A stretch of 64,000 nt of DNA. It comes from Balanoglossus misakiensis (taxonomy: Eukaryota; Animalia; Hemichordata). Position numbers and translations under genes: made by a program. The notes under the pieces were generated by a model. It was not told the DNA's origin. It saw only the letters and a list, made by a program, of their open reading frames with translations, and ran no database searches. The stretch covers positions 6,060,303-6,124,302 of the forward strand of contig CM082582.2 of assembly GCA_040954595.2 (NCBI GenBank). Direction: 5' to 3'. Shown piece by piece: positions 2,547 through 46,842 of the stretch; position 1 is the first letter of the stretch, and each line of letters begins with the position of its first letter.

Positions 2547-2673
2547 AGTCGACTTGAAACAATTGATGCAAGATCATAAATATATTTTATTGCTAACTGA
2601 AATCTTCTGTCAACAGATCAATCACCATAAGGTGACAAGTCGTCTACGCGTCACATTTTTTCCAGTTGTACAT

Positions 2674-13200: not shown

Positions 13201-16200
13201 CGTGCAGTTGGCGAAAAATAATTTGTTGTTGGCAAAAATTTCCCGTTTTACAGTATGTAAAACTGAATATGCATATCTCTGATGTCACATCTTTTTTTAA
13301 CCTATAATCTTGCATGCATGAGTGTACATTATGCCAATATCAAACAATGCACCATTTTAGATTGATATCAAATAGTTTTTGTTTATAGCACAGAACATAT
13401 CAACTGTAGTTTGGTATATGACAGCAATAAATTATCTACTTTACTATTTATCTGTCTGGCTGTGTGTCAAAACCTGCATGTTGCCAAGAAATGTATGACT
13501 ATCGCACAATATTGATTCATGAAAAATACCGAAAAATGATATGTTTGACTTTAAATATCCCTGGAACATCACCGTATAAACTGGAAAGTTCCAGACTTGA
13601 AAGACCGTGAGCATGTGAACCCTGTAAATAATATATCACTTGTTCGAACATCAAATGAACCAAAAGCAATATATCATAATTTTTTCGCTATTTTTTATCA
13701 TACTGAGTCAACCTGAAGAGATTAAAATGACATACGATATATTTTTCTGACCTTTATGTGATAAATCATGTTTTGAAAAAAAAAAATTCGCGTTTTTATT
13801 TACTTTTATTTCTTCTTTTTTTCTATTGCAGAGGATGAACCAAAAATGGTAGGTATTATCAAATGGTGATGTTTTCTGAAAGACAGATGTAAAGTATTAT
13901 GTCCTGAAGTTATAAATAATTTATTATCTAAAATGGCATTTTACTAGTGTTTTCTTTCATGTTTGGGTATGAAAATAATGCCCTCAGGGTAGGCTAGGTA
14001 TATAGTGTGTGATGGAAAATGTGCTGTCATGTAGTTTTAGTGTGCTGCTATGTAAGTGTAGTGTGCTGCCATAAAGCCCTGAAGAAGTGCATTGTTATCA
14101 CATTCCAAAGCCATATGTGTTGAATTTTGAGAAAATGTGACCAAATGCATTTTATTATTTGAAATCAAAGAGCCCTGGCCTCTTTAATCTTTCCAGTTTC
14201 TATAACTCTGGTTAAATGTTAAGTTGTTGATAAATATCTTAATTCTCTATATAATTTTTCCCAATCCATGAATACAAGCTTCGATGTCACAAAGATTGGA
14301 AGATTAAGGAACTTTCCTTCGCCAATAATCTTCGCCTTAGGTGCAGTTTGTATGCACTAAACTTTTGATTAACATGGAAATTAGTTTATTCATGAGTGCA
14401 ATAATGGGTTACAACCACAAAGAGCTGTACTTTCGCCTGTGGGTTTCCTGAAAGCAACTCGAGATTAAGACCAGTGAATTTACGTGCAGTGTTATGAGAG
14501 GTCAGAAATTGGCAAAGTGTGCAGTGCATGTTTCCGATTTTGGCTTACTACAGTTTAGAACTGGAGCAATTTCAACTTTACAAGACAGTGACAGACATGA
14601 TCAGAAATGGGTGTACTGTTATGGTTTTTGGCAGTGATAAATTCGGAGCTTGAAAATATTAGCTGTTGTTTCACATACATTCTTGGAATCGCGCAGCATG
14701 ACTGCGCAGTTAGCAGGTGCAATATAATGGCACCGGCTGGCACTGCACATTGAAAAAAAATCCCTGCGCACTTAGGGGAGCACACTTTGCCTATTTCTTA
14801 CTGCTCACTTACCTGCTGTTAAAAATAGTGACAAACCGATGATGTCATACTAATGCAGGTGGAAGAAGTGATATTCACAATGATTCAACAACTCCTTCGA
14901 ATCTGTTCTGAACTGATTAAAATTTCATTGTGTGATACGTAACACACCTGCCTGAAAGTGTAACCCATACAATAGCATGGATTATGTGTCTGCCCTTCAT
15001 GATATACATAAAAGCGGTTTTAAAAATAGCAAGTTTGTATTTCTGTACAGTTTCTGTAGATATAAAAATGGTAGATTATAAAGATATGTAAACAATTTGA
15101 TCACAGTGGCAGCAAAAATATCACTAAAAACCAATATTAGTTCACTGACAACTACAAAGAAGTATTTTCAGTGTTTGAAAGCATAGAATATAGATAGCAA
15201 AACATCGTTTTTAGATTTGGGCAGTTGAAAAATCTTGAGCACTGATATCTAATCTGCTAAAATACATGTAAATCCTTCGGTATCACTCAGACTAATCCAA
15301 AGATAACCAGATGAGTAAGGTAGAATAGAATAAATACTTTGTGCAGATAAAGATGAACCATTTATCTCCAATACAAGCCATGATAAATTTCTGTATTAAA
15401 GGGATGCCCCAGTTGGTTCATACTCATAGAGAATGGGATGATATATGTTTTTTTCTTCGAGTAGTTTTTACATTGAAGTAATACAGCTAGTAATGACATA
15501 AAACAGCTTACAATTAATATAATGCATTAAATATGAATAATCGCTTCTATTTTTCATTCTGTTTCCCCTATCTACATCATACCTGGATCACTTTGGCTGT
15601 TCGACAATTCAATGATAAAAAAATAGTTTGCCTTCGACTATTCATACTGGTAAGTATACCTAGTACATGTATCATGATCTTGGTGAGAACTTGTTGCTTG
15701 AAGTCATGACTTTAATGTCGTGACCTAATAAAAAACAAGATTGTTAATTTTCATACATGATAAACATGCATGATTAGGTAATCATGTTTAAGTGTATTAT
15801 TAATCATGCATTCCTGGGCATTGTAAATGTAGACACCATTATGTTTTCATTCTTGTGAAAATGATCAGCTAAGTGGTGTACACATGACTGGTGGTCCGTT
15901 AGAAATGCGAACTTCAACACACACAATGGTGTCACCGTGTTAACGTTTTCAGTTCATTTGATACTAATTACTATTATACCACTTCATTAAGTCCCTGTCA
16001 GAACATATTGCACAATTTGACCTTAAAAAGGCGACGGTCATTATCAGCTGTATGGTATTGTACGGTGGGTGGAAACAGAGAATTTACTTACTTTGGCCTT
16101 ATTTATGATTTCTTACTGAAAAGGATATGAAGTGGTTCATCTATTTCTGCTTTTTCGTTTCTGACAGGTCTCATGACGGATATGTAGAGCAGCCTAATGG

Positions 16201-19200
16201 AATCCTGGAGGCGAAACCGGGAAGCAAATATGCATCACAACAGAGGGTGTTTGATGATCTGGGAAAGGGTGTTTTAGACAATGCCTTCAAAGGTGTGTTT
16301 CATTTATCATATATGCTTTAAGCTTTGAGCAATGCTTTCCACTGATGCATTGTGTAGAATGTATAACCCACAATATGCAAAGATATTAATAACACAGTTT
16401 TATGAACTTATCGAAAGTGATGTTTCTTGAAAAAAAAAAGGTATTTCATTTATAACCCCATTGAAGTCCCCTGAAAGCTGATGTATTACGCAGTCGTATT
16501 TTCAGTTAGTATGAAAATATCATAAATTGAGTGATTTTACAAGTGCAGCCTTACACGATGACAGCCCCCAAGAGATTATGATGAATGATGAATTCAAATA
16601 GTGCATTAATGTTTGACACGTAAACATCAACAGGTCTACTCCGGAATAAAATGTCACTCGTAACCTACTGCAGAGCTCTATGTAAAATATATATGGCTCT
16701 GAAATCATATTGTGTATATTTATTTCAGGTTTTAATTGTTCCCTGTTTGCCTACGGACAGACTGGTTCTGGCAAATCCTATTCTATGGTGGGGTATGGAG
16801 AAAATAAGTAAGTAAAGTGGTCACAAACATGTCTATGTGAGATATGAGATAAGCTGTACATTATTTGTACGTATGTATTTTTGTGCATGTCTGAGTGTGA
16901 CTGCATATAGTCTTCACTTACTTGTTTCAAATGTTAACGAATGAAATCTTTCTTGCAGGGGTATTGTACCAATTACATGTGATGAACTTTTCAAGACAAT
17001 GGCTGCAGGCAGTGCTGATGTTGTACGTATATCACTCAATATCCTGTTTCATTTAAATTGTTGAGTCCACAAATCATCGAAACCTGTTGAGGGATTCGTT
17101 GTGATTGTGTGGAAGGAAGTGAATTGAGCACTTTAATTTAAACCATGAACATGATGAACAAAATATTGATTATTATTTCGAGAATTTCCAAGGCAGTATC
17201 ATAGATTTTCTATGCTTTGTACATGTAGATCTGTATTGTGGCATTGATTCATGTTAAAGCAAGTTGAATGCTATTCTATATGTGTCAGTTTCTTTGGTGT
17301 GACTAAATGTAGCAGATAATTTTACAGAAGTGAACCCTGCAGTACTTCTTTATTTGTAAAGTTCTATAAACTTCCATTGTCAAATGTCAAATTTTAGTGC
17401 TGAAATTGATACTTGGAATTTAGCAGTACAGCCGGCTAATATTTTTCTATGTTGCTGTTTTCTCCCAGAAATATCAAATCACATTTTCCATGTTGGAAAT
17501 TTACAATGAACAAGTGAGGGACTTACTGCAAAAGACCAACCCCAAGGGAGGCTTACAAGTGAGACAGAATCCCAAACTGGGTCTCTTCTACGTGCAAGAT
17601 CTGAAAAAGGTGGCCGTGGCAAGTTACAAGGAAATAGAGAAGAGAATTGCTGAAGGTAGGATATTGAATCAGTCCCGTTTGTCCCAGGTGATGCATTGGG
17701 TTTCACCCCCATTACCTAGATATTTGACAACAAGTCGACTATGTATTAAGTTTCCCTCTAGCATGGTGGTGAAGGAGGCAAACTTTAGTTATCATGAAGC
17801 TTGCTTTTAAACCTTTCACCCCTGTCTCCCTCTTAAGAGGTCCAACTTTACCATTGGAAACAATGTCTTTGGACTAAACCATTGTGGTGAACTGAAAGGG
17901 TAAAAGCAGAAACATGGAGGATTAAAGCTTGGTGCTCATTACATGTTTGGAGCTCTAGTGGGAACTGCACATGTACAACTCATGTAGACATGTAATTTCT
18001 GAATTAATGGGAAACAAACACTGAAACAGCTTTGTGTATTTAACTATGAATGTATTTGAAAGAGATTCTTTTGTTTTTCCCCCAAACAAATGTGGACATT
18101 TTTTCTGAAAAGTGTGGGCTGCATGGGCTTGTGTGTGTGACATTTAATATATACAAAATCTGGTCGATCCCATTGACCATTTAAACATTAAAGTGTTAAA
18201 ATACAATAAATATTTGATGACTATTAGATTACACCATTGATCAAGCACAGCAAGGCGAGATACCAAGAAATATTGATGAATTTTCCTACATGCTCATTTT
18301 AGGCACAGCAAACCGTACGGTAGCATCCACCAACATGAATGCAACGAGCAGTCGAGCGCACACAGTGGTTACTATAGTATTTGAACAGATCAGCAAGAAT
18401 GAAGCTGGCCAAGAAACCAAGAAAAGTAGTACCATCAACTTAGTAGATTTAGCAGGTATGTTTTTTCCTTACAGTAATCGAAGCAGTCATACACCTCCCG
18501 GACAGATTTTCAGAAAAAATGATAGTCCTCCAAATCTTGCAATTCTTTGCTATATTTAAGTGTGTGAAGATTTCTCCTGAAAACAGAGAAGCAAACAAGG
18601 TGTTCGCCAACTGGTTTTCACAAAAAATCACTACACTGAGATTGGCGGCCATTTTGAATTTCAAATTTGAAACACTTGCTCCCTCATTCAAAATTTTGCA
18701 GTGACCTGTCAACTTCTCATGTGCTCTGTTGGTCCATCTTCCGCAGAACTAATTTTGAGCAATGATTCAGAAACATGGAATTATGTTGACCATAATTACT
18801 ACACAGTTAGTTTGACCATGTAAGTAATCTAGAAATGTATTGTGGTATTGATTGACTTTTACAGGTAGTGAACGTGCTGACAGTACCGGTGCAACAGGTG
18901 ACAGATTGAAAGAAGGAGCAAATATCAACAAATCTCTCTCAGCATTGGGAAATGTCATATCGGTAAGTACCGGTTTATGTACTTTATTGTCATCAGGCAC
19001 CATTTTGTGAACTGTTGCCTGTACAGGCAATAGACTTGTAGCTGGATGCTTTTATATATATGCAGGTTAAAATTGGCATTTGTATATTATGTACTAAGTG
19101 AAAACAAGTGTCTGCATAGATAACATGCTCCAGTTCTCTCCAAACACCCCATTCATACTGCAAAACAGAACTTCTGTGGGTTTAGCCTCCCAAGGGACAA

Positions 19201-22200
19201 CAAAGAAAACACCAAGGTCTTCGTAGTGTAAACATTTTGCAAACATCTTTGTTGCTATAGCAACATCACACTATTACAAAGAAATAAAAGAAAAATTGTA
19301 TCCAGTGGGTCATTTTATTGTTTGCTAATTAATTGGTATATGAAAAAGCTATGGATAGCTCGTAGCTTGTACGTATGTAAATGTGCATGCAAGCTGTGTT
19401 AAAAAAAACAGGCTGACAGGCTTTTAGTGGTAGTAGAAAGCTTGTCTCTTGAGACTGTCATGAGTTGATGCGTCAGATAATCAGCTTTGGAATTCACTAT
19501 ATTTTTTGCCTTAAGACAATAATTAGGCAGATTTAGAGGTATCATAATTCAAATCCAAACTCTTTTTTTTTTTTTTGCTGTAGGCTCTGGCTGATTTGTC
19601 AATGGGAAAGAAGAAAATAATGGTACCTTACAGAGACTCAGTTTTGACAAAACTTCTTCAGAATGCTTTGGGAGGCAACAGGTGAGAAGACAATGTGATA
19701 GGATTGTTTGGGAAGAAGGGACAAGTGCTCTAGTTTGGTTCATCCATGTTTCCTATATGTTCATGATGCATGCCTTTTATGAAAATAATCAAGAAGGCTA
19801 ACATTTGTCAGAGGTGGATTTACTGTGTGAAAAGTTCTTTATATGACTAAAATATGCCTGGTCGTATTTTTCCAAATACATGCTACATGTATTTTTTCAA
19901 GTTCATATGGACTTGGAAAAATAGCCATTTTTGTCAGAGGTTCTGTTTACTATGTGAATAGTTCTGTATAGGATTAAAATATGCCATGTCATAATTTTCC
20001 AACACTGGAATTTTCCAAATAATGTAATTGGCCTGTATGAACTTGGAAAAATAGCCATTTTTTGTGCATTTACTTTATTTTGAATGGGCCATAATGCAAG
20101 ATATATCAAATAAATGAATTCAGGAATTAGGTGCATTCATGATGAATCTTTGAATTTCAGCAAAACTGTGATGATCGCCGCGTTATCGCCGGCCGACATC
20201 AACTACGACGAGACCCTGAGTACCCTGCGGTACGCCGACCGTGCCAAGAAGATCAAAAACAAAGCCGTGGTCAACGAGAACCCTCTGGACAAAATGATCC
20301 GTGAACTCCGGGAGGAGAATGAGAAACTGAAGAAAGCGCTGTCCGGCGGCGGAGTTGTCACCATGGAAGGGAGCAGTGGGATGACCCCTGAAGGTACAGT
20401 ACCCAGCAAATTCCTGAGAGTGCAGTGACTAATTTGCATTACAATTCAAGCAATTGTTATGATGTAGTCTTACTGTTAAAGTTAATCTGTGTTTTTGCTA
20501 TAGCGTTTGGGAAGATTGGTAAATGACTTGGGAACTGTGGTAAAATTTCTGCTACCTGTTAATATGACTGCACAGATATACCAAGGGATCGAACCCCAGT
20601 AACATTTACCTGGGTTCCTCGATCCCTTAACAAAAATTCTGTTAACGGTGTACCAGGGTAGTTTGTGCTGACTTCTGTAATATATATAAGCTTTCAGTAT
20701 ATAATTTCATTTTTGAGATAACTCTAATATTAGTGTTTTATTTTGTTTAATTGATTCAGAGCGCGAAAAAATGAGGCGGGAAATGGAGGAGGAGATTCGA
20801 GCACAGCTGATGGCCAATCAGGAAGCCTTAGGTGACATGGGAACTGGATGGGAGGAAAAGGTAATGTACGCAGATGAAAATGGGTTGTGGATGTTGTGAT
20901 ATATGGGCAAAGACAATGGGAAAAAATTAGTGTCTTGTAGGGTGAATGAGAAAAAAAACAAACATGGAAAACATGCAGTTATTTGCTGGTGCTTTGCATT
21001 CGAGATGGTGCAAGTGTTCCCCTTAGTTTATATTTACCATTCATCTTCTGTCTACAGAGACACAGACAGACAAGATACACACATACATTCACATGCACGC
21101 ACATACACACAGACACGAACATGAGTGTACACACATGCATGCACATAGCAGCACATAGCACACACGCACATACAGACATAGGCAGACTCACACTCACACA
21201 GACACACACACCTGTCTTGCTCCAAGACACGTACACAGTCATACGGACTGTACAGCACATAGCATGTAGAGGGATTATCGACAGACATAGTGCCTGTGCT
21301 GGAGTCTGACACACACCACGCACAAATACAATTTCAGCTATATATAACTAGCGATGTCTTGTATTCTGTTTCACATTGACGGTTTCTGGGTTTTTCTCAC
21401 AGGTGAAGAGAGACCAGGCTGAATACGAAACGGAGAACAAAGACAAAGCCATGGCGGAATCCAGGAAGAACAAAGAACCGCACTTCATGAACTTGAACGA
21501 GGATCCCCTGTTGAGTGGCATGGTCGTACACTTTATGGCGGGCAGCAAGACAACGATTGGTCGCAAAGATGCAGATCCTGCCCCAACCATAACCCTGAGT
21601 GGTTTGAGGTGTGTATAGTTTACGGTCATTATAATAAACGGGTGTGGCACCCATTTATTATTTTACTTGTTCACCTTTAAACACACAGCCACAATTGGAG
21701 ATTGATAATATGTTCGTGTGTACCCATCAGTAAGCTTATTTAGATGGACCAATCGAAGTTTGAAAGTAAAACCATGACAGAATGCGGACATTGGCTGTTA
21801 TTGGAGCTTTAACAGGAAAATTTGGCTAATTATATGTCCCCTGTTATAATGTAATATCTTGCTGTATGACTTCCATTGACAGTATACAGAAGAACCATGC
21901 TGTGATTACCAATGAAGGTGGTGAGCTGACTTTACAGCCAGGTGGACCAGGTGCGAAAATCAAAATTAACGGAGTACCTCTTACGGGACCAAGAGCCTTA
22001 GAGCACTTGGACAGAGTTCTCTTTGGTAAGTATAGACATCAGATTAGAAAGGGACTGACTGTAACTTTGGATGAGTTGGCTATGACAGGCCAGAACTTAG
22101 TATGGGCATGGAGGTACTAGAGAGAAGGAGCGAGGACGGATTTAAGCGGATTAAATCCCTTTCTTCTGAAGTGTGATAAGCTTCTTAAGTCTTTGTGTTT

Positions 22201-25200
22201 CTGTGTCGATAGCGTCATTTGAACCCACTGTGTGTTGCCGCCGATTTTACAGTTAGGTTTGCAAGATCTACGGGGTAAAATTTCTATGATATTAAAAACA
22301 CTATGCGCACATCGCGGACGAGCGTACTACATATGCGTGGTGACTTTTATTTACATCTAGAGGTCAAGTTTACGCATCACCACTACCGGAAACGTGTCAG
22401 GCGGACGTCTTGGAAGACTTGTAGCGTTATTTCTCTTGTTTGTACAACCAAAAAGTATGATTTTGAAATGAATATTTTGAGTTTGTAGCAATTTTCAGCA
22501 AAAAACAACAAGTTCATAGGTTTTATTTGAAAACCAATCTTCCCGATGCAAGCTGTTTTGTTAGTGTGGGATGGTGTGGGATGCCCGATATTCACCATTG
22601 TAATTGCCAGTGCAGAGACGTTCGGCACAGCAGTTTGGTCCGGTTGTTTATGCTTTGTAAATCATGTAGACGCGATGCCAGCTGTAATTTGTTTATCTAC
22701 GCAAGCGCACAGCTCTTATGAACGCCTATCAGGTGATAAAAGGTTGAGAGCCTAATGTTATCTGCGAACAGATTAAGACGCACATGGGGTTCATAGGAAA
22801 CAATAGCGTCCTCGCTCCTTCTCTCTAGTACCTCCATGGTATAGGTGGAAAATTACAAAATTAAAATGGATGTAAAAACCCAGCAATAATACTGTTCAGT
22901 ATGATGAAAACATTAAAAATTATATATTTCTTTCCGATAAAAGTGTTAAACATGGAGTTTGGAGCAAAGCCATGCCAATCTAGGCCTGCACAAACGTAGG
23001 TTCAAGTCCCACATAATCAATCAAACAGTAGTAAAAAAACATTGTTTGCTGGATTATAACCAAAGGTGTGAACATCATGGTCAACACACTGAACGAATTT
23101 GTATAGAGTGATGTGGGTTGTTTATTGGAAGGCAAATATCAGTCACACTTTGCCATTGTTATGTTAATCGCTGTCTAACAACAGAGTTTGTGTAGAGGGT
23201 TTTCCTCATGACACTTTGAATCTTTGTGAAATAATCTACTAGGAGTCTAAAGGTTTGCATGATTTCTGATCCCAGGTCTTCCTTGAAAATCTACTCACAT
23301 TAATCTGTATTTAAAGTTCGATTGGGCAATGTGGGAATTATGACAAGTTGAAGATTTTTTATTTCCCATTTCTTGTTCAACTCACCCAGGATCTAGTCAC
23401 ATGTACGTCTTCAAGAACCCACTGAAACCCAAGAAAGGCGAGGGAACCCCGGACAATGTTGATTGGGAGTTTGCGCAGAAGGAAATCGCCCAGGCCAAGG
23501 GTTTTGCAACGGGAGCGATGGCTGGACTTACCAAAGGTATACACGAACACAACTTTGTGATTCCATTCTGCTACATGTAATTATCAACGTGATTACTCTG
23601 TTGGAAATGATTATTGGATCAAACCTCTAAGATTGTTAAAATGTTTATACAGTATGTTGTTTGCCATTTGGAATGGGTAGCATGTTGTTTTTACTTATAG
23701 AATATGCCACATAATGCTTATAAGTAAATGCATATTATGTATTAAATCCAGAAACAAGAAAATTGTGTTGCACTCTCTGCATTGGTTGGATGACATGATA
23801 GAACTTTATATTATTTGAAATCACCACCAAATTTTGTGTTTTATACATGTCTGTGTGTGTGTGTGCATACATGTGCATGTGTGCATAACTGTTTCTCAAA
23901 AATACCAAGCTTGTACACCAAAGTTATATGCAAATATCATACTAAACAACTCATATTATTATTTCAGACCAGCAAAGAGCCCAGGAACAGGTTTTAGAAA
24001 TCCTTCCAATGGTGACTGAAGCCAATGCCATCAGTGAAGAATTGAACAAACACAAGAGTTTCGAAGTGGTTCTGATCAGTGGCGCTGCTCAGGAAGGAAC
24101 TGGCAAAGAAACAAAGTGAGCAAGTGATATTATCTGTAAACATACCAGTATTCTCATATAATTTAAAATAATTGTCAAACACCAAACTTTATGCTTATGG
24201 CATATAGTATTTATTCAAAAACTGAACATGTTTCCCTCTCTGACAGAGTTATGGTGAAAATGAAGAATCTGATGAACGGTAACACGTGGCTTTGGGAAAG
24301 AGGCAAATTCATGAACAGAAGATATTTAATGCAGGTAAGATAACTTGGTTACTTTCTTGGCTAAGGCGTTTTGTCCTGTGACCGGCTATTATCGACATCA
24401 CTGTAACTTTGCTACTCTTCGTCTGTCTGTAACTTTTTTTTCACAAGTGCCATTTTTCTCCCACAATGTCATAGGACATGTACCAGAGATGGCTAGATGG
24501 TGACGAAGACGTATTGAAGATTCCCAAGGAGGAAGATCCGTTCTGGGAACCGACAGAAGATGTGCTCATCGGCAGCTGCAACGCGTTTCTGCAGAGTTTA
24601 GGATATGCCCTGGACTTCGATGATGTTCTGGCTGTCACTGATTATAAGGTGGGTACATATCACTGGTTTCTTGAAATTACATTTAAGAGCACAAAAACCA
24701 CACAATATTCAATACATACAGAATTGTAAAACTCTAGCAAAAAAGTACTTAATGCGGTGAAAAAAAACGGAGGTGCTGATAATTATTTGATGGGTACATT
24801 TTAATCCTGATTTCATTGGTAAGTGTACATCACGATTTAATCACACGCAATTTTTTTCTTTGACTTCAGGGAACTGAAGAAGGCCAGATGTCTATTGTCC
24901 TGACCCCGTGCACTCAAGCAGGAAAACCAATTGATGAAGAGATGTTCGTTGACGATCCTCAAGAACTCTTGGGAAAACCTTTCTACTTTAAGGCAAGTTT
25001 ACTCAGTTTCAGATGTACGATAGAAAACTTCTTTGGTAAAAAACTAATGCCATAGACTGCAATGACACAAGATAAAATAAGTTGATATGATAAAATAATA
25101 TTTCCATAATTTCTGTGATAATAATTATTATACATTTTTGTATATCTAGTTATATATCTAATTTACATAAAATTTGCATAACATTTAAATATTATTTGCA

Positions 25201-28200
25201 TGTGGCCAATAATGACAATACATATACAGGGTATGATTACAAGAATCATCTGTTTTGTTTCGAACAAGAAATTGCATTGGTACACAGAAAAAAACTACTG
25301 AAAATAAAATCAAAATTTATAGTGTACGTCCCTTTAACATACCAGCTGCACAGATCATATTTCTCTTCACTGACATCTTTTATTTCTGCTTATTACAGGT
25401 CACCGTTCGAAACTGTGACGTGAACAAGGCTCGTTTTTCCAAGGGTTTGTTTGTCAAGTACAGAGTGTACAAAGAGGATAAGTACACTCAGACACCAACC
25501 CTGAAAGGAAGTTTGTCGCCAGAATGGAATCACTCACGCGTCGTGGCCTTTCCGAGTATGACTCAAGAGACCCTCGACTTCTTCGACACGGGCTGCATAA
25601 CGTTCCTCCTCTACGGTGTACAAGAAGATATTCTTGCCGATTCCAAACTTTCTAAAATGACGACCAAAGTAAGATTTTCGTGCGTTAACCCTTTTCACCC
25701 CCAGTTCCCTCTGCAGAGGTCCAACTTTACTGTAGGAAACTGGGTTTGGACTGAACCATGGTGGTGAAATGGTTAAAATAATAAAATGATGAACTATAAG
25801 TGGTCTGTGGACACTTTATCTAAAACCGTTGACATGGGCAGTATGTATAAGGTTAAATGATTACCAGCCACAGAGAATGTGTGAAAATGAACTATGCAAT
25901 GAAAAACCTCATTCCTCAACTGCCCAACTGCATCGGTCCCTTGTGTAAATCTTTTGGCTGTATACATCCATGAAGTGCCCAGCCTTCATGCCTTTATTTC
26001 CCCTGCCTATCTGCTACACACTCTGTCCATTTTCCACATCACACGTGAAATTCTCATTTGTAAAGCATCAACCAAATCAAACCCATTATTTCATTTGTGT
26101 GTGTGCCTGCTAGGAATTGCGGGAGATGGAGTCGATACAGCAGAGGCCTGCCCTGTCTCACCGAAGGTCCACCATCGTGCCGGACTCCGGCGACGGACAA
26201 CTGAAAGCAGAGTATGTGCTGCTGCAGAGGAAATTTGAGAGGCTGGAGAAAAAGGAAAGAAGACTACAGGTGATCACGATTTCAAGTTGCATTCTGTTGT
26301 TTTGGGGTAAAAGTAAAACACATCATACCAACCACACAAAGTGTTTTATTATATAAAGTTTGATTGCTTTTGTTTGGGACCCTATGGTTGAACATATGGA
26401 GGTAGAGAAAAACCTGTCTAAACCCAACCCTGTCTAAAATGGAAACCTGTATATACCGAACATCTTCGCCTGTCACTTTGGCATAGAACCATGTTTTAAA
26501 GGCTTAAAAGGACATGAATTATGGGAGTGATCTCCTGGCAATATGCTTCTTGGAAACCCCAAACAGTTTCAACGTTTAGTTGGGACACACTGTGTGACCC
26601 CCCGTTCATTCCTCGTTGAATTCCAGGAGATATGCAGGGAATGGGAAGCCAAACCACCAGAACAGCAGCAGTACGAGCCGTTTTTCCGTGCAGTGTCTGC
26701 CGTGGCCTATAGTACTGGAACCAAGCTGAAGACGAGGGTGCATCTATTGAACCAGGTATGGCACTCCGTTATTGCTTTTTGGAGCTGACAATGAGCTGGT
26801 CTGATTTTGACCAAGTTATCCATCAAACATCTGGTGGTTTTGCATTCGTCTTCAGACCTCACTGCCAGTTTAACAAGTTTCTTTCAGGATCACGGCTGAA
26901 AAGTCACTGTCTTTTGTAACTGGTTCTGTGTATTACAGTCCAGTTATGGATGTGTTGACTTAGAATAAGACAATTATAAACATTCCAAAACAAATTGGTA
27001 CTTTTGTGTATTATACTTTGAGCACACTTATGAAGTCAGGGGATGTGTACATGTATAAATGACATTAGTACATTGTAGATGATATGAAGTGTGTGTGTGC
27101 GTGTGTATGTGTGTGTGTGTGTCAACACATCCAGAAGCTTATCCAAGGGGTAGACGAAGACTAGAAAATGTGTTATCAAATGATTGCACACTTTGCAAGC
27201 ATTGCTTATGCAGATATGTGGGCAAGGCTCTTTGAGTAATTTGAGTATAATATGCCAACACCTGTTGTTTTTTCAAAATGTCACTATCACTTGGCTTTCC
27301 TTGGTTTTGTTATATGAGCAGGACAGATTCCCCCATGCACATGTATGCCATAAGTCCAAATTGAAACGCATCATCTATACATGTGTTCTGAGACCTCACA
27401 GCACTTGAAACTATGCACACATTACAGCCACTGTGAGATCACACACCAGCTGTATCACACGGTCAACACAATTTGGTACCTTCCATCCAATCACATAGCC
27501 GGTACTATGTATCATATGGATGCTGTATTTTTTATGAACCAAAATTAATTCACTCATTCGTTCAATTGAGATACCAAATTTTTCCATACATGTACACATG
27601 TATAGCAAGCTGTTTGTGAAGGCCACTGTTCAGCAGTCTTCCCTTTAACAAAATCATTTTCAATCTTTTTATCACCATCATCCAAAAATATTCAATAACG
27701 TCCGTGTCTCTAATTGCTGCCTTTGTTTCTTTTTTCCCGTTGTCCACTTATTAATGAATCATGAGGAATATTTCGTGTTTACACACAGTTCATCTATTAC
27801 AATCTATTGTCTATACTCACACAATACAACTTTATCTGTAGAACTCAAATGTGTCGACTGTTTACTCAAAGTAACCCTCACAGCTTCTCAGATGTTCTCC
27901 ACACACAAAATCTAAAAGAAAACACCCTTGAAAAAATTAATTATCATTTTTATCCTAAATGTCTGATATTGAATAAGGTTTGATAAATGAATAAGCTGTT
28001 AATGCAATTGAAGTAGGTTTATTGATTTGCTGATTATAAATTCAGGGACTTATAATAGGAATATTATAACATACCAATGAAAGTTTGGCTTTATTGTCCC
28101 CTTGCGGAACGCTCGTGTAGAAACTGTGAGGGTATTTCTTTTCTTTCTATTTTCTTGTGTCTTCAATAACCTGTTGATGCATCCATTCTTTCTTCAGATT

Positions 28201-31200
28201 TTACGAGGTCATCAAAATGCTAAGGAGAGGTTGGGTGCCGATGGCAATGTAAGAGTTGACATGTGCACGGAATTATTAACCATTCTCTGTTTCTCTCTCC
28301 TGCACCATTTTAAGAGCATTCCTTGTTTTGTGGTCGCTTCGGTGTAATAAAGTGAACAAAATGGCCGACTCTAAGGTTTGGTCAAATCCTTTTGTTGTCA
28401 GTGGTACAGAAGAGGGAGGGGCATGGTTTAGCATGAGAAATTCATTATCCTCATCATCTGTTCGATTTGAATGTCACACTGCCTTGTCGTGTTTAATGGT
28501 CCAAGCCGAACTGGTTTTTATTTCTGCTTGGACACCTCGCGACCACAAAACAGAGATTGGACTAAAATGTGATATGTATTATTAACCAGATACGAAGCGA
28601 GCCTGTCCAGGTAATACTAAAACACAGAGTGCACAGAGCGTGTTGTTTGGTCTGTAACCCTAACCGATATTTAACAAATCTGTCATGTTTTGTTTGTCTT
28701 TCCTCTACGTCCACTCAGGATGACAGCGTCAGTCTTGTTAGTTTTTGTTTTAATGAGCCGCCCGAGGATAGCCAGGAAGTAAGCCGTGGTGTTGTGTGTG
28801 AAACGTTTTTTTGCACCCCACCCCCCTCGGCTGCTGGAGACCTTACGTCAAGCACTGTTTCACACCCACCCACTTGAGATAATCTGCTTGCTTGATATAC
28901 CGGTGTGGAATTTTGGTGTGCCGCCATCCCGAATGTTACTGCGTTTTTATCAAATTGCTTGGGTTTGACAAAAAAAGCACTGCAGCATGTGATATCGATG
29001 ACAGAAATAGATGTCTCAGAATGTGAAGCGTTGGATAAATATGACTATGGCATCGACAAGATCTTCGCGTGATCTGTTCATTTTCTTCATTATCCAGAAT
29101 GTATAGTTACATGTATTTGGTGGGTGGTAAAAGTTGACAATTTAGTATTGTAACATGAAAGTGAAGCATCTCTTGAGAGAAAAGGGATTGGTCATTCATT
29201 AGTTTTCATCTCAAAGACCATTGCTGTGAGATAGTTCAGAGGGAAATATATGATACACTGCAAGTATATAGGGAACATCAACAAGAATAAACTGTGAATC
29301 AAGACTTTGACATCCTAATGGGATACATTTAAAACTACTGTCATAGCTGCTTGCTACATGGTGCTTAACAGGCAATAGGCCATCGTCATGATATCCCTTG
29401 CCATACAGATGGTGCTCTTGACCTCCTGTCCGGACAGTATCAAAATAGTTGTCATGGATTTCTATTTTCACTGCCCATGTCAAGTTAATTACTACATCCC
29501 TGTTATATTGATGACATGTGATGAGGTGGTGATTTTTAGGTCCTCAAATGACCTACAGTATTCAAATGGTGTTCCTATGTTAGTCATTTCCCTGATGGTG
29601 GTATGCAAATCTGCAGACCCATCTGCTGTGTGTTCAGGTGGTACTATGTATTTGGGAGGGGGGGGGGGGGGTTACAAAATAATCATACACAGCAGATGAC
29701 AGAGCAAAATTGCTAGACAGTGATGACGGCAGACATAATTTGGAGCTATTTTGTCAGTTAGAGTACTGGAGATTGCTAAGGACAGGTTTAGCTAGGATTC
29801 TAATCCACCAACAGACATGCAGTGGTAGAGTTCAGATGGTTTAAGGCAGATAACAGGGTTGAAGTATACATGTATGTCAGATGTAAATTATGATCATCGA
29901 ATAAGAATGATGGGCCCAAGATTTCCTTCAAGAACGTGTACACTTTGTATGGATGTTGTTGTTGCTGTGTTTAGGATAGTGTTCTTTGTGTGAAGGTGAT
30001 AGATGATAGCTATAGTTACTCCAACTCTAAACTTTTACTGTTTACTGGAAATATCTCTCCCTTCAGTGTGTGGTATACTTAATCCTCATTATGTAAGAAA
30101 TACTTAATTATAATGAGGTTCACATGTATATCTGTGTAATTTGAGAATATAGAAACCATAGCAACTCTAGAGTAGACATAGCAAGTAGAGTACTACATGT
30201 AGTATGTGGTGATACGTGTATTGTGATTCTGGTGGTAGGCAATGATATTAAAGATTCCAAAAAACCTCTAGGGGGACAGAACGTGTGTTATTTATCAACA
30301 TAGTTCAGTAAATGTTATTTTTTATAACTCCTTTTTTTTCTTAATAGTCACCTATTTTGTTAGCTTTTATTTTTGTGTAAACATTGGGAAATGTTAAAAT
30401 GATGTGCTGTTAACATCGCACTCACTAAGGACAACGTACAGTCATTATCAGGTTTTTGTGAGTGAGTTCAAACTAACCCCTTAATATCGAAACTGTGTAT
30501 TATTTTGTTTTTAGATGCAAGAGTTGCAAAAGAAATCGACAGGACAAAAATCCACCACCTGCACAATCCTGTGAACTAAACGATTTGCATTTCTTCATTG
30601 TTACCATGGTAATTCCCGCCCATCTTTTAATTCATGTTGCAGTCATTTGTGGTAAAGTTCAAAGTTCGGTATCCGTCACAATCATTTTTTGCAGACAAAT
30701 GTAATCGTCTGTTCTTTGTTATCATTTTGTCGTAAATGGAGCATCCTTGTCTATATGACGGTTGCTCATTCTAGACAAACGTCTACATCTAGTTGTTGTA
30801 GCCTATCCTTAAGACGTTAAGTATCTGCTTCTCTGTAGTAATCATCTGTTGTAAGGAAGTCATCACTAAATGTTAAATTTCTCATTAGTCACCTTTGTTG
30901 AATCCCTGTAACTCTAAATCACGTCTAAACTAACCATCTAAGTATTTATTCGACTTCTTTTCCGGGTGGGGGCAGAAAGGAGAAAAATATGTGACATATG
31001 GTACTTGCTGACCCTAATGGTGTATATCGTATGCATTATCATCGTATTGGAGTTAACCAAAGGCCATATCAATCTCGTAAGCCTCATTAGAGTTCCTGCA
31101 TGGTGGAAAATACATGAAATGTGAAAATTTTAGATGTACACATAGCTGCTTTTGCATCTTCAGTCAGTTACTGTAGTAGTGTTTGTTGGAAATATTCTTA

Positions 31201-33429
31201 GTATCATATGTTTCTGAGGAATGACCCCTCCCTTAGTCTAATGTATCCAAGAGAAATTTAAAGTATCGTTGTTTTAAAATGAATCACAATTTTTATAACC
31301 AAATTCCATGGTCTAAAAACTGATCACTGTCGCTTTAATAACACTTATGGTCAAGATATTGCTTCAGTCGTAACTTTTTCCGTAAACCATTTGGCGGAAC
31401 AACTGATATTCAGCTTTGTCACAATTTGAAGAAAAAAGAAAAAAATAAGTCTCTGTCAACCAACCCGTCTGTGTACTCTGTGACTTGGTATAACCTTGAC
31501 TGATTTCGTTTTTTCGTTTCACTGTGTTCACATCCTGTGTGTGAGTTTGTATTTCAGTACGTCATCTTTGTTCACTTGTAGTGGTCCGGGCGCAGGTGCC
31601 AACAAAAACATCTCTTCATTCATGCACATTCACGTGTTATAATAATAATGATAAAATATTAACCCTAAGTGTTCAGCCATATACAGTCACACATTGTAAT
31701 TTGTAAGTTTTGTCCCTGAATTCCCTGCACAAGTAGACATATCGATATATCACCATTTGATGTGTTTTTTCATGTTTACGCACAGTAGAGCATGTATATT
31801 TTCATATCGTAATGAAGTACATGTGTAATGATAGTTTTAGAAATGCTCAAACTTAAGAAAAGAATGTGTATACACCGATTTTGTTTAGAGTCACCTATTT
31901 AAGTATAATATCCGTCACAAGAAACTAACAATTTATGAAAATATAACAGACATAAAGGGAGTAAAACTATTCTGATTCCCAGTATGATAATATCACTTGG
32001 TATCCATTTTAAGTAAAAAATGTAATGTATTAAGATTTTGGAAAATTTCACTATTTAAAGTTCACAGCATGACTCAGTACTTTTCATGTAGTGTAACGAT
32101 ATACCTTGTACAGATAATGATCACATAGACAATTGTTAAAATGATTTTTATAACTGATAAATTTATTTTTCACCTAGGATGTGTTCATAACCCTCGCTTA
32201 ATGCATGCAGTGTGGGTTTGCACTGACACAGTACTATTCTCGAAAAGGGCTGCAGTCATTTTTTCTGCTTGTGTGGGGTCGGTCCATGCTGACAAAATGA
32301 TATTAGATTCTAGTCCCAAATCTGTGATGGTGTGTGTTATTTTTGAATGAAAAAACATGTCAGCTTAATATCCATCTACAGGTGGATGCATGAGCAATTT
32401 TGGTGACTGTAGCCCTTTTATGGTCCATGTCATGTTTTGGTGTTTGCTAGTCTACTATCACATTCCATGTGAAACATCAAATTGTCTATCCTCGTGACTA
32501 CCAATGTACATTTCAATACTCCTGGTGTCTGTCCAATTCAGTCCATCTTCTCTGTTGTCTGTCACCACGGTGATACCCCGTTGCATGTTCATGTTTGCAG
32601 TGTGAGTTTTGCATGGATACTCATGCTTTAACTCTAACACAACTACATCATTGACAACAACAAAAAAATGGTGCCGGTTTGTACATTGGTAGAGTATTGA
32701 CACTGCTGACGGACACTGAAATGCTGTGATAAAATGCAGAAATGTTCAATGCACACGTCACTTCAACAATGAGTTAGTTGATCCAAATCAAAAATCCAGT
32801 TCTGTGTGCCTGCAGTTTAAAATTTGGAACCGCTTATTGTTAGAGGAAAATAATAAATTACACTGATGAAATTCCTACTCTAGTTTCGTGACACTCATCA
32901 CCAATGTATGGCAATTAAATGTTAAAAATAGATATTTTTATTACCGATAGTCAACTTACCTTGTCATCAATCATTAGTGCAAAGAAAAAAAATCCAGAAC
33001 TCAAAGTTGTACATTTAGATAAGAGTTCTATATACCAAATTGTCCCCAATGAAATCAGTTTACTTTGCCTCCATCCGTAAAAATCCATATACACTTGTAA
33101 TACAATGATTTGGATTTTGGAAATTCTCTAGGTACTCTGTTATTTGAAAACAAAAATAAAATATACATTTCTGATTCTATCACATTGCATTTCAGTTTTT
33201 TTATGATGATGACTGACTGACTGACAAGTTTGATTTTAAGATTGTGCCAAGTATATTCCTGTCACTGTGTGCTGATCGTTTCTCCTTCATTTTAATTTTG
33301 AAACAGGTGATCAAGAAAGGAGCTGCCGCTAAAAATGGCCAACAAGTCAAGTCAAGAGGCCACACCAAAACACAGAAATCCGACGGCAACACAGCGGAGA
33401 ATCAAAGCAAAGCGTGTATCGTTATGTAA
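10246..33429 (+). CDS. KIF28: Kinesin-3 family motor, KIF28/KLP-6-like (motor, neck coil, FHA, stalk, C2-like region), with alternative 3' ends
   Basis: Exons 10246-10265, 10369-10407 ([11 protein letters not shown]), 10521-10597, 13832-13848, 15627-15649 (FAFDYSYW), 16168-16292, 16729-16807 (P-loop GQTGSGKS), 16959-17022, 17469-17655, 18303-18455 ([14 protein letters not shown]), 18865-18962, 19584-19681 (VPYRDSVLT), 20161-20393 (ETLSTLRYA), 20760-20860, 21403-21608 ([12 protein letters not shown]), 21883-22025, 23390-23536, 23968-24115, 24247-24334, 24475-24648 (EEDPFWEP), 24870-24992, 25399-25668, 26114-26269, 26627-26755, then alternative phase-0 exons. Kinesin-3 identity is secure; KIF28 orthology is from recalled similarity. 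Confidence 0.88.
13149..13255. mobile_element. Short TACAGT...TACAGTA-type MITE fragment
   Basis: Right end reads TACTGTAAAACGGGAAATTTTTGCC on the minus strand, a typical invertebrate TA-MITE terminus; the left end is degenerate. Confidence 0.4.
17807..17904. mobile_element. About 95-bp TTAA mini inverted-repeat element (piggyBac-like MITE), copy 1
   Basis: TTAAACCTTTCACCC...GAGGTCCAACTTTAC...TGGACTAAACCAT...GAAAGGG; matches the copies at 25685, 33954 and 38791. Confidence 0.65.
19800..20066. repeat. Degenerate tandem duplication, unit about 130 bp
   Basis: TTTGTCAGAGGT...TAAAATATGCC...TTTTCCAA occurs twice; ACTTGGAAAAATAGCCATTTTT occurs at about 19911 and 20041. Confidence 0.6.
21055..21325. 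repeat. Degenerate CA-rich low-complexity repeat
   Basis: Interrupted ACAC/ACAT/ACAG runs. Confidence 0.75.
22107..22838. mobile_element. 732-bp MITE with perfect 32-bp TIRs, P-element superfamily-like
   Basis: CATGGAGGTACTAGAGAGAAGGAGCGAGGACG (22107-22138) and its exact reverse complement (22807-22838); CAT...ATG termini; flanks GTATGGG / GTATAGG (7-bp TSD, 1 mismatch). Confidence 0.88.
25685..25776. mobile_element. TTAA mini-element, copy 2
   Basis: TTAACCCTTTTCACCC...GGTGGTGAAATGGTTAA, with TTAA at both ends. Confidence 0.7.
28198..28248 (+). CDS. Candidate alternative kinesin cassette exon [17 protein letters not shown]
   Basis: Pyrimidine-rich TTCTTTCTTCAG acceptor, GTAAGA donor, 51 nt, phase 0/0, open frame. 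Confidence 0.65.
28590..28610 (+). CDS. Candidate 21-nt kinesin microexon IRSEPVQ
   Basis: TTAACCAG acceptor, CAG|GTAATA donor, phase 0/0. Confidence 0.45.
28719..29072 (+). CDS. Candidate kinesin exon [20 protein letters not shown] (28719-28778) and possible terminal exon [28 protein letters not shown] (28986-29072)
   Basis: Pyrimidine-rich acceptor ending CACTCAG and donor GAA|GTAAGC. The second acceptor (CACTGCAG) is weak. Both pieces are phase 0. Confidence 0.4.
30515..30574 (+). CDS. Alternative terminal kinesin exon A: [19 protein letters not shown] (CaaX = CTIL)
   Basis: TTTTGTTTTTAG acceptor; phase 0 matches the upstream donors; ends TGC ACA ATC CTG TGA. Confidence 0.7.
   Translation: MQELQKKSTGQKSTTCTIL
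33307..33429 (+). CDS. Alternative terminal kinesin exon B: [40 protein letters not shown] (CaaX = CIVM)
   Basis: TTTTAATTTTGAAACAG acceptor, phase 0, ends TGT ATC GTT ATG TAA; AATAAA at about 34541-34546 downstream. Confidence 0.8.
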   Translation: MIKKGAAAKNGQQVKSRGHTKTQKSDGNTAENQSKACIVM

Positions 33430-33550
33430 AGTTATATATATAGATATCTTTTTTGCACACGTTTTTTAGACTTTTACTACCAGAAAGTAGTTAGTTATGA
33501 AAACTAGTGTATACTGGTATATATTTGAATACCAATTTTGTAAATACATG

Positions 33551-33700
33551 TACAGTGGACCCTCGCTAAAGTTGCACCTCGTCTTGGATTGCGATATGAC
33601 TGCCATTTCAGGCAAACTGTGAAGACTCCCGCTCATTGGCATTGTCTTTCGTCGATGGACCCCAACAATTCAGTGCGAAGTTAGCGAATGGTCCACTGTA
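33551..33700. mobile_element. Tc1/mariner (pogo/Tigger-like) MITE in the kinesin 3' UTR region
   Basis: TA-CAGTGGACCCTCGCTAA ... TTAGCGAATGGTCCACTG-TA imperfect TIR with TA duplication. Confidence 0.75.
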
Positions 33701-33953
33701 TTCTCTTGTATACTGGTACACGCGTATACTATACTTGTGTATACCCGTGTATACGATGAATCCTGGTGTATATACTGTTCTGTCCCGTTTACGTAAGAAT
33801 GCACGGATCAGATCGTTAACAATTGCGGCCTTCGCTTTAAGTTTTCCTTCCTTATGTCTCCTGAGCAACTTCATTTGGACCTGTTCCATTTTGACGCTCT
33901 TCCCAAGTAAACAGTTTGTTTCGTTTCACCTCACCCCTTACTTAAGTTACTAA

Positions 33954-34057
33954 TTAACCCTTTCACCCCTCTCCGTCCCTATTTCCCAGTACGTAGGTGC
34001 AACCACACCATTGCAAACCATGGGATTGAACCAAATTCGAGGGGTGGAAAGGGTTAA
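33954..34057. mobile_element. TTAA mini-element, copy 3
   Basis: TTAA-CCCTTTC...GAAAGGG-TTAA. Confidence 0.75.
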
Positions 34058-37000
34058 GAGGCTGTAGGACGAATGACGGAATTGGATGTATGTTACGAAA
34101 ATTAAAAAAACCCACAAGCTTTATATAGAGTTAAAATATACCTGTTCGATTGAGCCTGATAATTCCGACCTTCTGTTTGTCTAGTTGTTGTCACTCTCAA
34201 TGTTGACAGAGATGAACATTTACATCCTTGCATATCATTTTTGACATGGCATTCAATTGTCAAAAAAAAAATTGCTTCAAAAGAGCACATGTACAGGGCC
34301 AAGAGGCTAAAACATTCCTTTTTACTGTCAAACTTTTCCACAAGTTCCAAACTCCAGGGTTTTTATTGAAATCTCTTGTTTGTAAGATACCATTTACATT
34401 TAATCAGAATTGGAATTAAAATGATGTGTATATCTATAATGATTTATTAAAACTCACATGTAGTCAAGTAGCGTTCACATAAATTTTTGTAGACTTTTAA
34501 TCTAACTTTTAACGCGTGTAGACTAATTTGTAAAAAAATAAATAAAAGATATACCTGTATGTCTGGGTGAATTTTAAATGTGTTTTCCTATTCATGTTTC
34601 ACTTTGATGAATTTCTGTACAATATTTTCTGTGCTTCCTATACTCAGTACATATGTTGGCATTAAACATTTTCAGAACCTTAGCTTTTCTGTATTTGCAT
34701 ACTGGCAAGTTGGGTACTGTTAGTACAGTAAAACCAAGGTCTAAACCGTTCCCTTCTATCGAGTAAACACACGTGCCTTGATGACATATCTTGCAATATT
34801 TCTTAAGGTATGAAGACAGAGGTTTTCAGGAGAGAGTTGACGGGATGGTAACTTTAGAATGTCATGTAGTAGAATCAGTTCAGTGTTAGCGTCCAGATAC
34901 GAAATTATTCAAAATGTGTAAATGTTACAAGCAATACAAATAAATGACCAGGGGAATGAATGAATGAGAAAGTTGCAGTCAACAAGACTTTATTCAGGGT
35001 GTACAATATATGGGGGAATTTTCTTGTGAATATACGAAAGAAGGGTCTTTGATATTTAAACCATGTGTACTAGAAACAAAAGCCTTTATGTTCTCCATCA
35101 CATTTTCCAGCCCACCGCAGCCTTAAATTGCGCTCACCCACAACAATCTGTACTTCATTTGTTTTCCATGCTGAAAGTTTGAGTGAACACTCGGTGATGT
35201 ATGCTATTGTTCCCACCATTGCCATTATTTCTTTGCCGGACTTTAAAAGAAAACTAAATGCTTTAAAAGATTAAATCGAGCATGTCTTGGTGTGCGTTTA
35301 CAAGACTTAGTGCAATATACTTCCACAGCATTTTTAAATTGATTTATAGGTTTGCCACTCCTCTGAAATTTAAATTCTAAGAGTAAATCTCCACACTTGT
35401 GAAATCTGGCTACCACCCCATGTGATAAACGAAATTTGAATTTTGTTTGTAGTGCACCTGTTTTACCTATCCATGACCCATTGTAAATGAATATGAAAAT
35501 GCATTAAGTAATAGAAAACCGGAAACCACAACACATTTTTCATGTGGGAGATAATTCATGTTATTATCCATGAACAATTCTCGTCGAAGATTAATAATCA
35601 GTAATTCATATGCTGAGTTCGATAGAATGAAAAAAAAAAATATTGGCAGGGGTTTTTGAGGTATGAAATTATATAAACAGAGTTGATGTATGTATATAAA
35701 ATGGATTGATAACCATTGAAAAAATCTGCAATATTTTAACCTTGCACATATGTGATCCTTAAAGATTGTTTTGCCTTGTAATTTTTGACAAAGGGTCACA
35801 TGATTTCAGTTGGCAGTATATCCTGGAAAATTTTAAGTGTTGATTGCTGTCCAATTTACTAGTAAATGAAGCATGTTTAGCAGATCATATATTCAAGCAT
35901 TGTAGTTTGATAACACAAATGATTATTTTTGACTCTTCAGATGTGATAGGTATTTGATCAAGCTTTTTATTCCACCTATTGTTGTCAATGAAGCCGTCCA
36001 TAAACAAAAAAGCAAGAATTTATTTTAAGCATAGGATTATGCTGACCATCCACCTGTATCTAAAGTAGAGAATGCATTCATTGTCTTGCATTGACAAATA
36101 GAGAACTATGAAGAATGAAGGTTTCCGTTGAAATTTCATGTGTGCTGGGGTAAACTTAAACATGTAAAATTTAGTTTCAATAAAATAGTTTTTTTTATAG
36201 TTTTGACCTAATTTTGCATGTTTATTGACATAAAAATAAGGGTGGTGCAATTCGGCTGGCCTGTCTTTCTCTCCATCTCTCTTTCCGTCCGTGTGATTAC
36301 ATGAGTTTATCACACTCTTTCACATTTCATTAAGCAATAAGAAAAGTTCAAATGAGCCAAGTCAAGGCGATATTTGGAAAATCCATGAAGGAGAAAGTGG
36401 TTGATGAAAGCACTATATAGTTAAGTTTCTTCTCAGTACATTTTGCAAAAATAGAGTTGTCCGTCTTCTGAAATTAAAATTCTTTCTGACCCACCACAAT
36501 GTTACATTTTCAAGTCCTTGTATAAGATAATACAGATAGGTTTTACGAAGAAGGTATGCGTGAATGACTGACTCTTTCTGTACATACTTCTTTCACCTCA
36601 CTGAAATTTGTAAAGTAATGACATATCTGTTTCATTTACACAATTTGGGAGTGGAATATGTGTATTGTTAATTAATCCGGATTAAACGTTGGCATTTTGC
36701 CTGTGTTTTCTTGTTACTGAATAAATGTAGTTTTTAGAAAATTTATCATGAAAAACGTTTGGAAGTGTGTCTGTTTATGGTACTGTGTAGTGTGTGAGTA
36801 CATGTATTGTGTGGTGCTTGTGTGTGTAGTGAGATATGCTGGAGTCCAGCTGGCAGAGACCATGGTCACTTCAGGGACAATGGCTGTTTTGGCTGGACTG
36901 ATGGAGACAAAGGGCTTTACCTAGAATTAGAATGTATAGCAGTACCAATTAAAGTCCCAGAGTTGAACTTGTATCAAGTATAGTTTGTCTTAACAACCAC

Positions 37001-46030: not shown

Positions 46031-46062
<32 letters not shown>

Positions 46063-46811
46063 GGGGGGGGGGAAGATTGGAGAATTGGAGAGGGTAGGTC
46101 AGTGATAGGTGGAGGTACATGTAGGTCAGAAGTGATAATAAGAAAGTTTATGGGTTGGAGATATCAATGCATGTAGCTACAGTTAAGCAACGAGACTGTG
46201 TATACATTCCAATGATTCCCTTGTTTATTTGGTTGTTTTAATTAATGTGTTACTGTTGTACTTGTGCCCACAGAAGATGTGAACTGGAATGCCCTTGAGT
46301 GGGACCGTGCCGCGGAAGAACTCACATGGGAAAGAATGCTAGGATTGGACGGGTCGTTAGTGTTCCTGGAACATGTCTTTTGGGTCGTTTCACTGAACAC
46401 ACTTTTTATCCTCATATTTGGTAAGTAACTAATCAGATGCACCAGAATCTACCCACATGCCCACATGAGGCATACTGTAGCTCGCATTGTCCTCTTGTGT
46501 ATGTAAACACTGGATTGGTACACTCCTAGAAAGATGGTGATGTGAACATCTAAACCTTGTATTCTCGACTCGCCTGGGATGATTTCCTTGGCTACAGTGT
46601 ATTGTATGAACAGTATTAGTATCGTATTGATCATTGTGTGAAATATCTTTCAAATTAAATTTCACATACACACACAGCAATGTTCTAAGAATGGGACATA
46701 CATATAGTAGAGACACTTTGTTACAGATATATGAACACTTCAAAGATAAATGTGCATATAGATTGTGATATTAATGTCCTTAAAATTTCTGTTAACAATG
46801 CTATTTTCCTG

Positions 46812-46842
<31 letters not shown>

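Follow-up and report, generated by a model that had tools for sequence, protein, structure and literature searches.

A KIF28-type kinesin-3 gene in the window

The analysed window, a 64,000-nucleotide stretch of Balanoglossus misakiensis DNA, contains a kinesin-3 gene on the forward strand. Its shared coding part comprises the following features:

10246..26755 (+): shared KIF28 coding exons (24 exons, 966 codons), with an open joined frame and AG/GT(GC) boundaries
10246..26755 (+): layout of the shared part, consisting of motor, FHA, MBS, MATH-like beta-sandwich and C-terminal helices
26627..26755 (+): last shared exon, with a phase-0 donor; the intron position also occurs in the cnidarian-like contig L007

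No stop interrupts the 966 codons of the 24 joined exons, the last of which has a phase-0 GT donor. The nearest relative is KIF28 of Ptychodera flava, which has the identical residue at 874 of 966 positions of the shared part; identity amounts to 89-91% for each full P. flava KIF28 isoform and to 84% for Glandiceps. Named database matches of the window kinesin were KIF28-like or unannotated, and ESM Atlas matches were all under 0.9. Pfam searches detected KIF1B (E 4e-7) and, weakly, Kinesin_assoc on the window exons, and Kinesin, FHA and KIF1B on the P. flava isoforms. By sequence comparison, this is the KIF28 (kinesin-3) of a hemichordate, and it agrees with that of P. flava at about 90% of residues.

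The window gene shares its motor-FHA-MBS-MATH layout with the KIF28/KLP-6 proteins of P. flava and C. elegans (KLP-6, 7WRG; PMC9314371). A predicted model of the C-terminal half of a cnidarian-like homologue matched the C. elegans KLP-6 structure 7WRG with a Z of 20.2, and the last 27 residues of this homologue are predicted to be disordered (pLDDT under 50). The initial annotation had placed the gene in the KIF28/KLP-6 family and had seen neither a PH nor a PX domain in it. The KIF28 matches and the KLP-6-like tail fold support the placement, and the absence of PH and PX extends to the relatives scanned: none was found at E up to 0.1 in five proteins, nor among the precomputed domains of the matched relatives. 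The beta-sandwich (24870-25668 in the window) is called MATH in KLP-6; it has weak Pfam C2 matches, and in the homologue model it scored Z 7.4 against MATH versus Z 7.3 against C2. With these near-equal scores, the domain might be a lipid-binding C2 rather than MATH, and might form a second membrane contact.

Exon 24870-24992 ends in a GC donor (GC-AG intron, 24992-24994), and the frame is open only through this donor. Two microexons, 13832-13848 (17 nt) and 15627-15649 (23 nt), lie in the N-terminal part of the motor; both match the P. flava protein, and the acceptor of the second is A-rich and lacks a pyrimidine tract. A C-type lectin plus F5/8 gene lies upstream of the kinesin (2622-5394, -), and a WD40 gene converges on its 3' end (37822-39220, -). 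Further neighbours, at 43761-53174 (+) and 58480-59190 (+), are a ubiquitin-like ORF and a gene that we take to resemble the E3 ligase MARCH6, two exons of which gave no Pfam match.

Two alternative tail exons with CaaX motifs

Beyond the last shared exon, the gene offers two ends:

30515..30574 (+): coding part of the short tail exon, 19 residues ending S-T-T-CTIL-stop; 18/19 identical to P. flava isoforms X3/X4
33307..33429 (+): long tail exon, 40 residues ending S-K-A-CIVM-stop; matches P. flava isoforms X1/X2

Both exons start after AG in phase 0. The region 26800-37000 contains 523 AG dinucleotides, 10 of which open a phase-0 frame ending in C-x-[VILM]-[SMAQCL]-stop, and all 10 lie within the two tail frames. 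As a background, a strict CaaX precedes 14 of the 2692 plus-strand stops in the window, and in a decoy control none of 55 good acceptors in the other introns of KIF28 led to such a motif. Profiles built without hemichordates placed both tail frames at the top of 3740 six-frame peptides (E values 0.01 for the short and 7e-4 for the long tail), and in an anchored test the frame at 30515 scored 28.3, with the next of 162 scoring 7.3. Tails arising by chance are unlikely, because CaaX is rare before stops, the decoys yielded none and both frames took top profile ranks.

The tail exons have counterparts in annotated relatives. P. flava KIF28 (XP_070576239-42) has four isoforms, X1-X4, in which either tail is combined with a 17-residue cassette or lacks it. 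The long tails of the window and P. flava are identical at about 26 of 40 residues (~65%), including all of the last 11. Both tails are also annotated in seven echinoderms (Acanthaster, Patiria, two Asterias species, Apostichopus, Lytechinus pictus and Strongylocentrotus), so that two exclusive CaaX tail exons are annotated in eight species in addition to the window, the RefSeq isoforms being automated models. One Logan contig, 3592 nt long, codes for a 955-residue sequence that closes with the urchin short tail, and therefore derives from a spliced template.

These relatives bear on whether the short exon could be a chance intronic sequence or splicing noise. Its acceptor is middling: the initial annotation had called both acceptors good, but with scores of 5.2 (short) and 7.1 (long) they rank 29 and 15 of 461, against a median of 8.1 for KIF28's own exons. 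Nevertheless, the near-identity with a P. flava isoform, the homologues in seven echinoderms and the first place in tests for which echinoderms alone served as training set make noise a very improbable explanation. The central proposal of that annotation, two alternative phase-0 tail exons with CaaX ends, is borne out by coordinates, frames and relatives, and the two exons are almost certainly real and used. Splicing into both exons in B. misakiensis itself is suggested by its relatives.

Both window tails conform to the CaaX rule, with Cys at -4, an aliphatic a2, an accepted X and a free C-terminus. In CaaX substrates, the motif has to follow a linker of about 11 residues that is flexible and hydrophilic (PMC1175975). 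Both window linkers consist of small or polar residues, which, together with the predicted disorder of the homologue tail, fits this requirement. Upstream lysines had been mentioned as a feature of both tails; we found 3 (short) and 2 (long) K/R within 15 residues before the Cys, with net charges of +2 and 0. A polybasic second signal was rejected, both tail types having 2-4 K/R, and neither type has a second, palmitoyl-type Cys upstream within its last 15 residues. From their sequences, both window tails are very probably prenylated.

Distribution of tails and cassettes

Long-type tails are found in animals ranging from placozoans and cnidarians to chordates. In the cnidarian-like contig L007, the intron lies at the same position and is followed by a single CaaX exon. 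No short tail was found among the models listed for Glandiceps (2), Saccoglossus (2), five echinoderms (1-2 each), amphioxus (18), Clavelina (9), Lingula (6), two nemerteans (7), four mollusc groups (41) and corals (9). Among short proteins that cross the junction, only six mollusc-type fragments turned up, all with long tails, and a metagenome scan of eight loci, among which the tail exon was reached only in L007, had no echinoderm- or hemichordate-type tail in view. The annotations are most simply read as an ancestral long tail and a short exon gained in the common ancestor of hemichordates and echinoderms. An origin of the two tails as duplicates of one another is not supported, since they align poorly.

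Cassettes between the shared part and the tails add to this diversity:

28198..28248 (+): in-frame 17-codon cassette exon; 14/17 identical to the P. flava X1/X3 cassette
28719..28778 (+): likely in-frame acidic cassette exon, with an inferred end position; anchored score rank 1 of 182 (24.8 vs 8.0)

The first cassette ranked 1 of 182 against non-Ptychodera references. The second has its homologue in a D/E-D-S-V-S-V-F-S-F cassette that echinoderms and amphioxus carry; it was missed by the unanchored HMM and does not occur in the four P. flava isoforms. A candidate microexon at 28590-28610 was rejected: its acceptor is weak, at rank 256 of 461, and no homologue supports it. Some isoform differences lie within the motif itself. 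The Lytechinus pictus short tail (P0158, P0162) ends in CVCM, with a second Cys in the motif that is reminiscent of the CCAX form of CDC42, and two Lineus isoforms (P0193 and P0038) differ only in their last residue, CSII versus CSIM, which could alter the choice of prenyl group. Oyster CVLQ and CVVQ were rejected as exon alternatives, as the tail is the same and the difference is one of species or assembly.

Cassettes occur at the same place in the window gene, echinoderms, amphioxus and molluscs, and tails range from 19 to over 150 residues. Splicing might accordingly serve as a spacer control, which sets tether length and charge and so affects autoinhibition or cargo clustering, with no difference in carrier. 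However, charge differences between the tails are small and inconsistent, and a second CaaX exon is not needed for length, because the cassettes alone already vary it. We regard this explanation as quite unlikely.

The region downstream of the short stop

Two further features concern the 3' ends of the tail exons:

30575..30610 (+): a stretch of 34 nt that follows the short stop, then a putative 5' splice site (exon end at 30608)
34537..34546 (+): two overlapping AATAAA hexamers, a possible polyA signal for the long exon, identified from sequence only

The candidate donor at 30608 scores 6.9, second of the 215 GT sites between the tails and within the gene's own range; donor decoys of this strength occur at 0.03 per 50 nt of intron. 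No AATAAA or ATTAAA is present in 30575-32851, where 3.8 would be expected (zero in 1.6% of 2000 shuffles), and the first canonical hexamer after the short stop, at 32852, is 2.3 kb downstream. Other polyA hexamers 3' of the long exon lie within 34101-34939. The short exon could thus be a stop-carrying cassette that is spliced on to the (then untranslated) long exon, or it could have a long private UTR; from the sequence, the two options are about evenly balanced, so that the separate polyA sites envisaged by the initial annotation are no more than a possibility. A stop close to the last junction escapes nonsense-mediated decay under the 50-nt rule. With the short stop only 34 nt before the candidate donor, the transcript would escape such decay.

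Several short motifs that may be involved in splicing control are found in this region. TGCATG, presumably an Rbfox-type element, occurs five times between the tail exons (31097-32615), four of them within 410 nt; ACTAAC is present at 30472, 30929 and 31924; and three of the five GTCACCT copies in the window fall within 30347-31896.

The short exon might act at the RNA level, altering the 3' UTR and hence mRNA location or stability, with protein tails that act alike. The missing hexamer and the candidate donor are in line with this, and so are the transcript records: several transcript accessions exist for 8 of 16 short-tail proteins versus 2 of 27 long-tail proteins, as would be expected if transcripts vary downstream of the short stop, although these counts lack independence. 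The two tails of CDC42 also come with different UTRs (bioRxiv 10.1101/366369). Against an effect on RNA alone, the residues of the short tail are more conserved with P. flava (18/19) than those of the long tail (~65%), and the residue directly before the Cys differs between short and long tails in 8/8 species. On balance, we consider the RNA-level explanation unlikely.

A family-wide S-x-x-CaaX signature

CaaX ends are not confined to the species with two tails. Cys at -4 is present in 113 of 120 animal matches listed, whereas absence of CaaX conservation in orthologues had been named by the initial annotation as grounds for dropping its proposal. Among distant representatives, it occurs in 42 of 146, and in 38 of the 79 that cover MBS-MATH with a tail. 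In a midpoint-rooted FastTree tree, which supports no order of events, the CaaX-bearing distant relatives are spread over many branches. One branch of 11 KIF28-like relatives lacks CaaX (FastTree support 0.995; P0343, P0354, P0355, P0373, P0375, P0376, P0394, P0396, P0401, P0410 and P0434).

A Ser three residues before the Cys, referred to here as Ser(-3), accompanies the motif in all 57 distinct animal long-type tails, in 38 of 40 distant tails (40 of the 42, two short fragments ending inside the domain being left out) and in all eight short tails. Neighbouring positions carry Ser in only 9% and 13%; as these counts come from related sequences, binomial P values overstate the evidence. Both window tails have Ser(-3). 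The initial annotation had noticed the exon pair, and overlooked the family-wide CaaX and its invariant Ser. As judged by sequence comparison, the conserved feature is the family-wide S-x-x-C-a-a-X, rather than a switch between farnesyl and geranylgeranyl.

The residue at -1, immediately before the Cys, differs between the tails. In the eight species with both, the long tail always carries Ala at this position, and the short tail carries Val (6), Met (1) or Thr (1); all seven echinoderm short tails have Val or Met, and the window has Thr (short) and Ala (long). Thr at -1 is also found in 8 of the 57 long-type tails.

The X residue and the type of lipid

The initial annotation had proposed that splicing selects a C20 or a C15 anchor, so that the exon pair would be a switch between geranylgeranyl (short) and farnesyl (long) that sends the motor to different membranes. 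In the window and in P. flava, the short tail ends in CTIL, a sequence that receives geranylgeranyl in human OAS1 p46 (PMC8357416) and that human GGTase-I modified fully when tested with a yeast reporter (PMC11152559). Since CTIL is geranylgeranylated elsewhere, the lipids on the two tails may differ in B. misakiensis. Leu at X is unusual: the 113 animal representative tails among the matches listed, many of which are mollusc isoforms, have Gln (78), Met (33), Ile (1) or Thr (1), and none has Leu, yet it is common to two species about 10% apart.

The echinoderms argue against the lipid as the reason for the pair. All seven of their short tails have Met as the last residue, as do most long tails (short-tail motifs: CSVM twice, CSLM twice, CVVM, CVCM and CAVM), and the long tails of these echinoderms have either Met or Gln there; the exon pair thus persists without a C15/C20 contrast. 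Moreover, several Met-ending motifs are modified by both prenyltransferases in yeast, CIVM itself not being among those tested (PMC11152559). The X of 40 distant single-tail relatives varies (Met 15, Gln 13, Leu 8), which indicates that X is permissive in the KIF28 family. A lipid switch to different membranes is distinctly unlikely as the function of the pair. From the sequences compared, a C15/C20 difference would be at most a lineage-specific addition, and would not be why the pair has lasted.

A proposed PDE6D carrier model

Ser at -3 is known from cargoes of the prenyl-binding carrier PDE6D. Tails with Ser(-3) and Ile or Met at -1 bind PDE6D at 4-12 nM and undergo ciliary sorting, compared with 445-6573 nM for Lys(-3), and swapping the -3 and -1 residues reverses affinity (PMC5512577). 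Ser(-3) is required for PDE6D binding of geranylgeranylated RPGR, although PDE6D binding alone is insufficient for ciliary entry of the RPGR tail (PMC5051646). Among KLP-6 proteins, that of C. elegans works and moves in cilia (PMC12646758), and a link with mitochondria is described for rat KLP6 (PMC8077471).

These reports suggest the following mechanism for KIF28. The gene offers two phase-0 tail exons and upstream cassettes, as seen in the window and in relatives, and according to established CaaX rules a prenyltransferase would add a lipid to the Cys that ends the flexible tail. The invariant Ser(-3) would fit the PDE6D pocket, making the KIF28 motor a PDE6D cargo. The short tail, with Val, Met or Thr at -1 and a spacer of 15-17 residues, would be a tighter, cilium-biased address, and the long tail, with Ala at -1 and a spacer of 22-36 residues, a weaker one. 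In Ptychodera and the window, the short tail would in addition have gained Leu, and probably takes geranylgeranyl.

By analogy with the known cargoes, Ser(-3) rather probably serves PDE6D. That the tail swap retunes PDE6D affinity and tether length, rather than mainly the type of lipid, is plausible though a little short of probable on sequence and analogy, and its tuning of PDE6D sorting may be slightly more doubtful. The weakest link of the model is the -1 contrast in the window, which is only Thr versus Ala; neither residue is among those at -1 in the peptides described in the available part of PMC5512577. Tentatively, and with less confidence, KIF28 could be an ancient lipid-anchored kinesin-3 that PDE6D carries into cilia in the manner of INPP5E or GRK1. 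A second tail exon, evolved in acorn worms and echinoderms, would then switch the motor from a form bound for the cilium to one of the cell body or back, and Ptychodera-like worms would have added a geranylgeranyl upgrade.

Relation to known systems

As one gene with two long-kept alternative CaaX tails, KIF28 resembles KRAS (4A/4B) and CDC42; tails of this type have been kept over hundreds of millions of years, and KRAS and CDC42 are given as the only two of 167 RAS-family genes with the two-tail design (PMC9882654). Unlike these small GTPases, KIF28 is a motor, and its tails lack a polybasic patch or a second Cys (except for the Lytechinus CVCM). Farnesylated kinesins with a C-terminal CaaX are known in CENP-E and the Trypanosoma KinesinCaaX; in contrast to KIF28, they belong to other families (kinesin-7 and a kinetoplastid-specific one) and have roles in division, with no alternative tails described in the available part of the source (PMC3206815).

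INPP5E, GRK1 and RPGR share with the KIF28 tails a Ser at -3 before the prenyl Cys (PMC5512577, PMC5051646), and the urchin short tail (S-G-V-C) and GRK1 (S-G-M-C) both have a hydrophobic -1. None of the three is a motor, and the KIF28 long tails differ from them by Ala at -1. RPGR is also described with an isoform without CaaX. The p46 form of OAS1 has a splice-made tail with the same CTIL as the window short tail and is geranylgeranylated, but it is an unrelated protein whose alternative isoform, unlike that of KIF28, lacks CaaX (PMC8357416).

The initial annotation knew of no such description for KIF28/KLP-6, and our search of titles and abstract openings likewise found none of KIF28/KLP-6 prenylation. 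A word search for CaaX or prenylation found no mention in PMC9314371, PMC10945585, bioRxiv 2024.08.06.606760 or PMC13440232, and klp-6 was not found in six supplements of PMC11248228. The main texts of the PrePS and PRENbase papers name no kinesin; the PRENbase tables, the UniProt feature lines or the supplementary alignments of the KLP-6 paper may have the motif listed. The KLP-6 crystal construct carried a C-terminal tag, with residues 842-928 unresolved (PMC9314371), and five alignments to C. elegans KLP-6 PDB sequences end at or before residue 883 of 928.

Significance

Automated annotations already contain the two exons; what is new is their reading as a variant of the known anchor-swap design. 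Kinesin-3 motors are thought to reach their cargo via PH, PX or adaptor-binding domains. For KIF28/KLP-6, which lacks PH and PX, the predicted covalent lipid anchor with its PDE6D-type signature is a candidate cargo link, and the S-x-x-CaaX signature spans animals and many distant eukaryote relatives. C-terminal GFP fusions would block such an anchor in KIF28; if the reading is true, earlier studies with C-terminal tags would have hidden it in those members that keep the motif. The exon pair would then add a motor protein to the few genes that swap membrane anchors by splicing.
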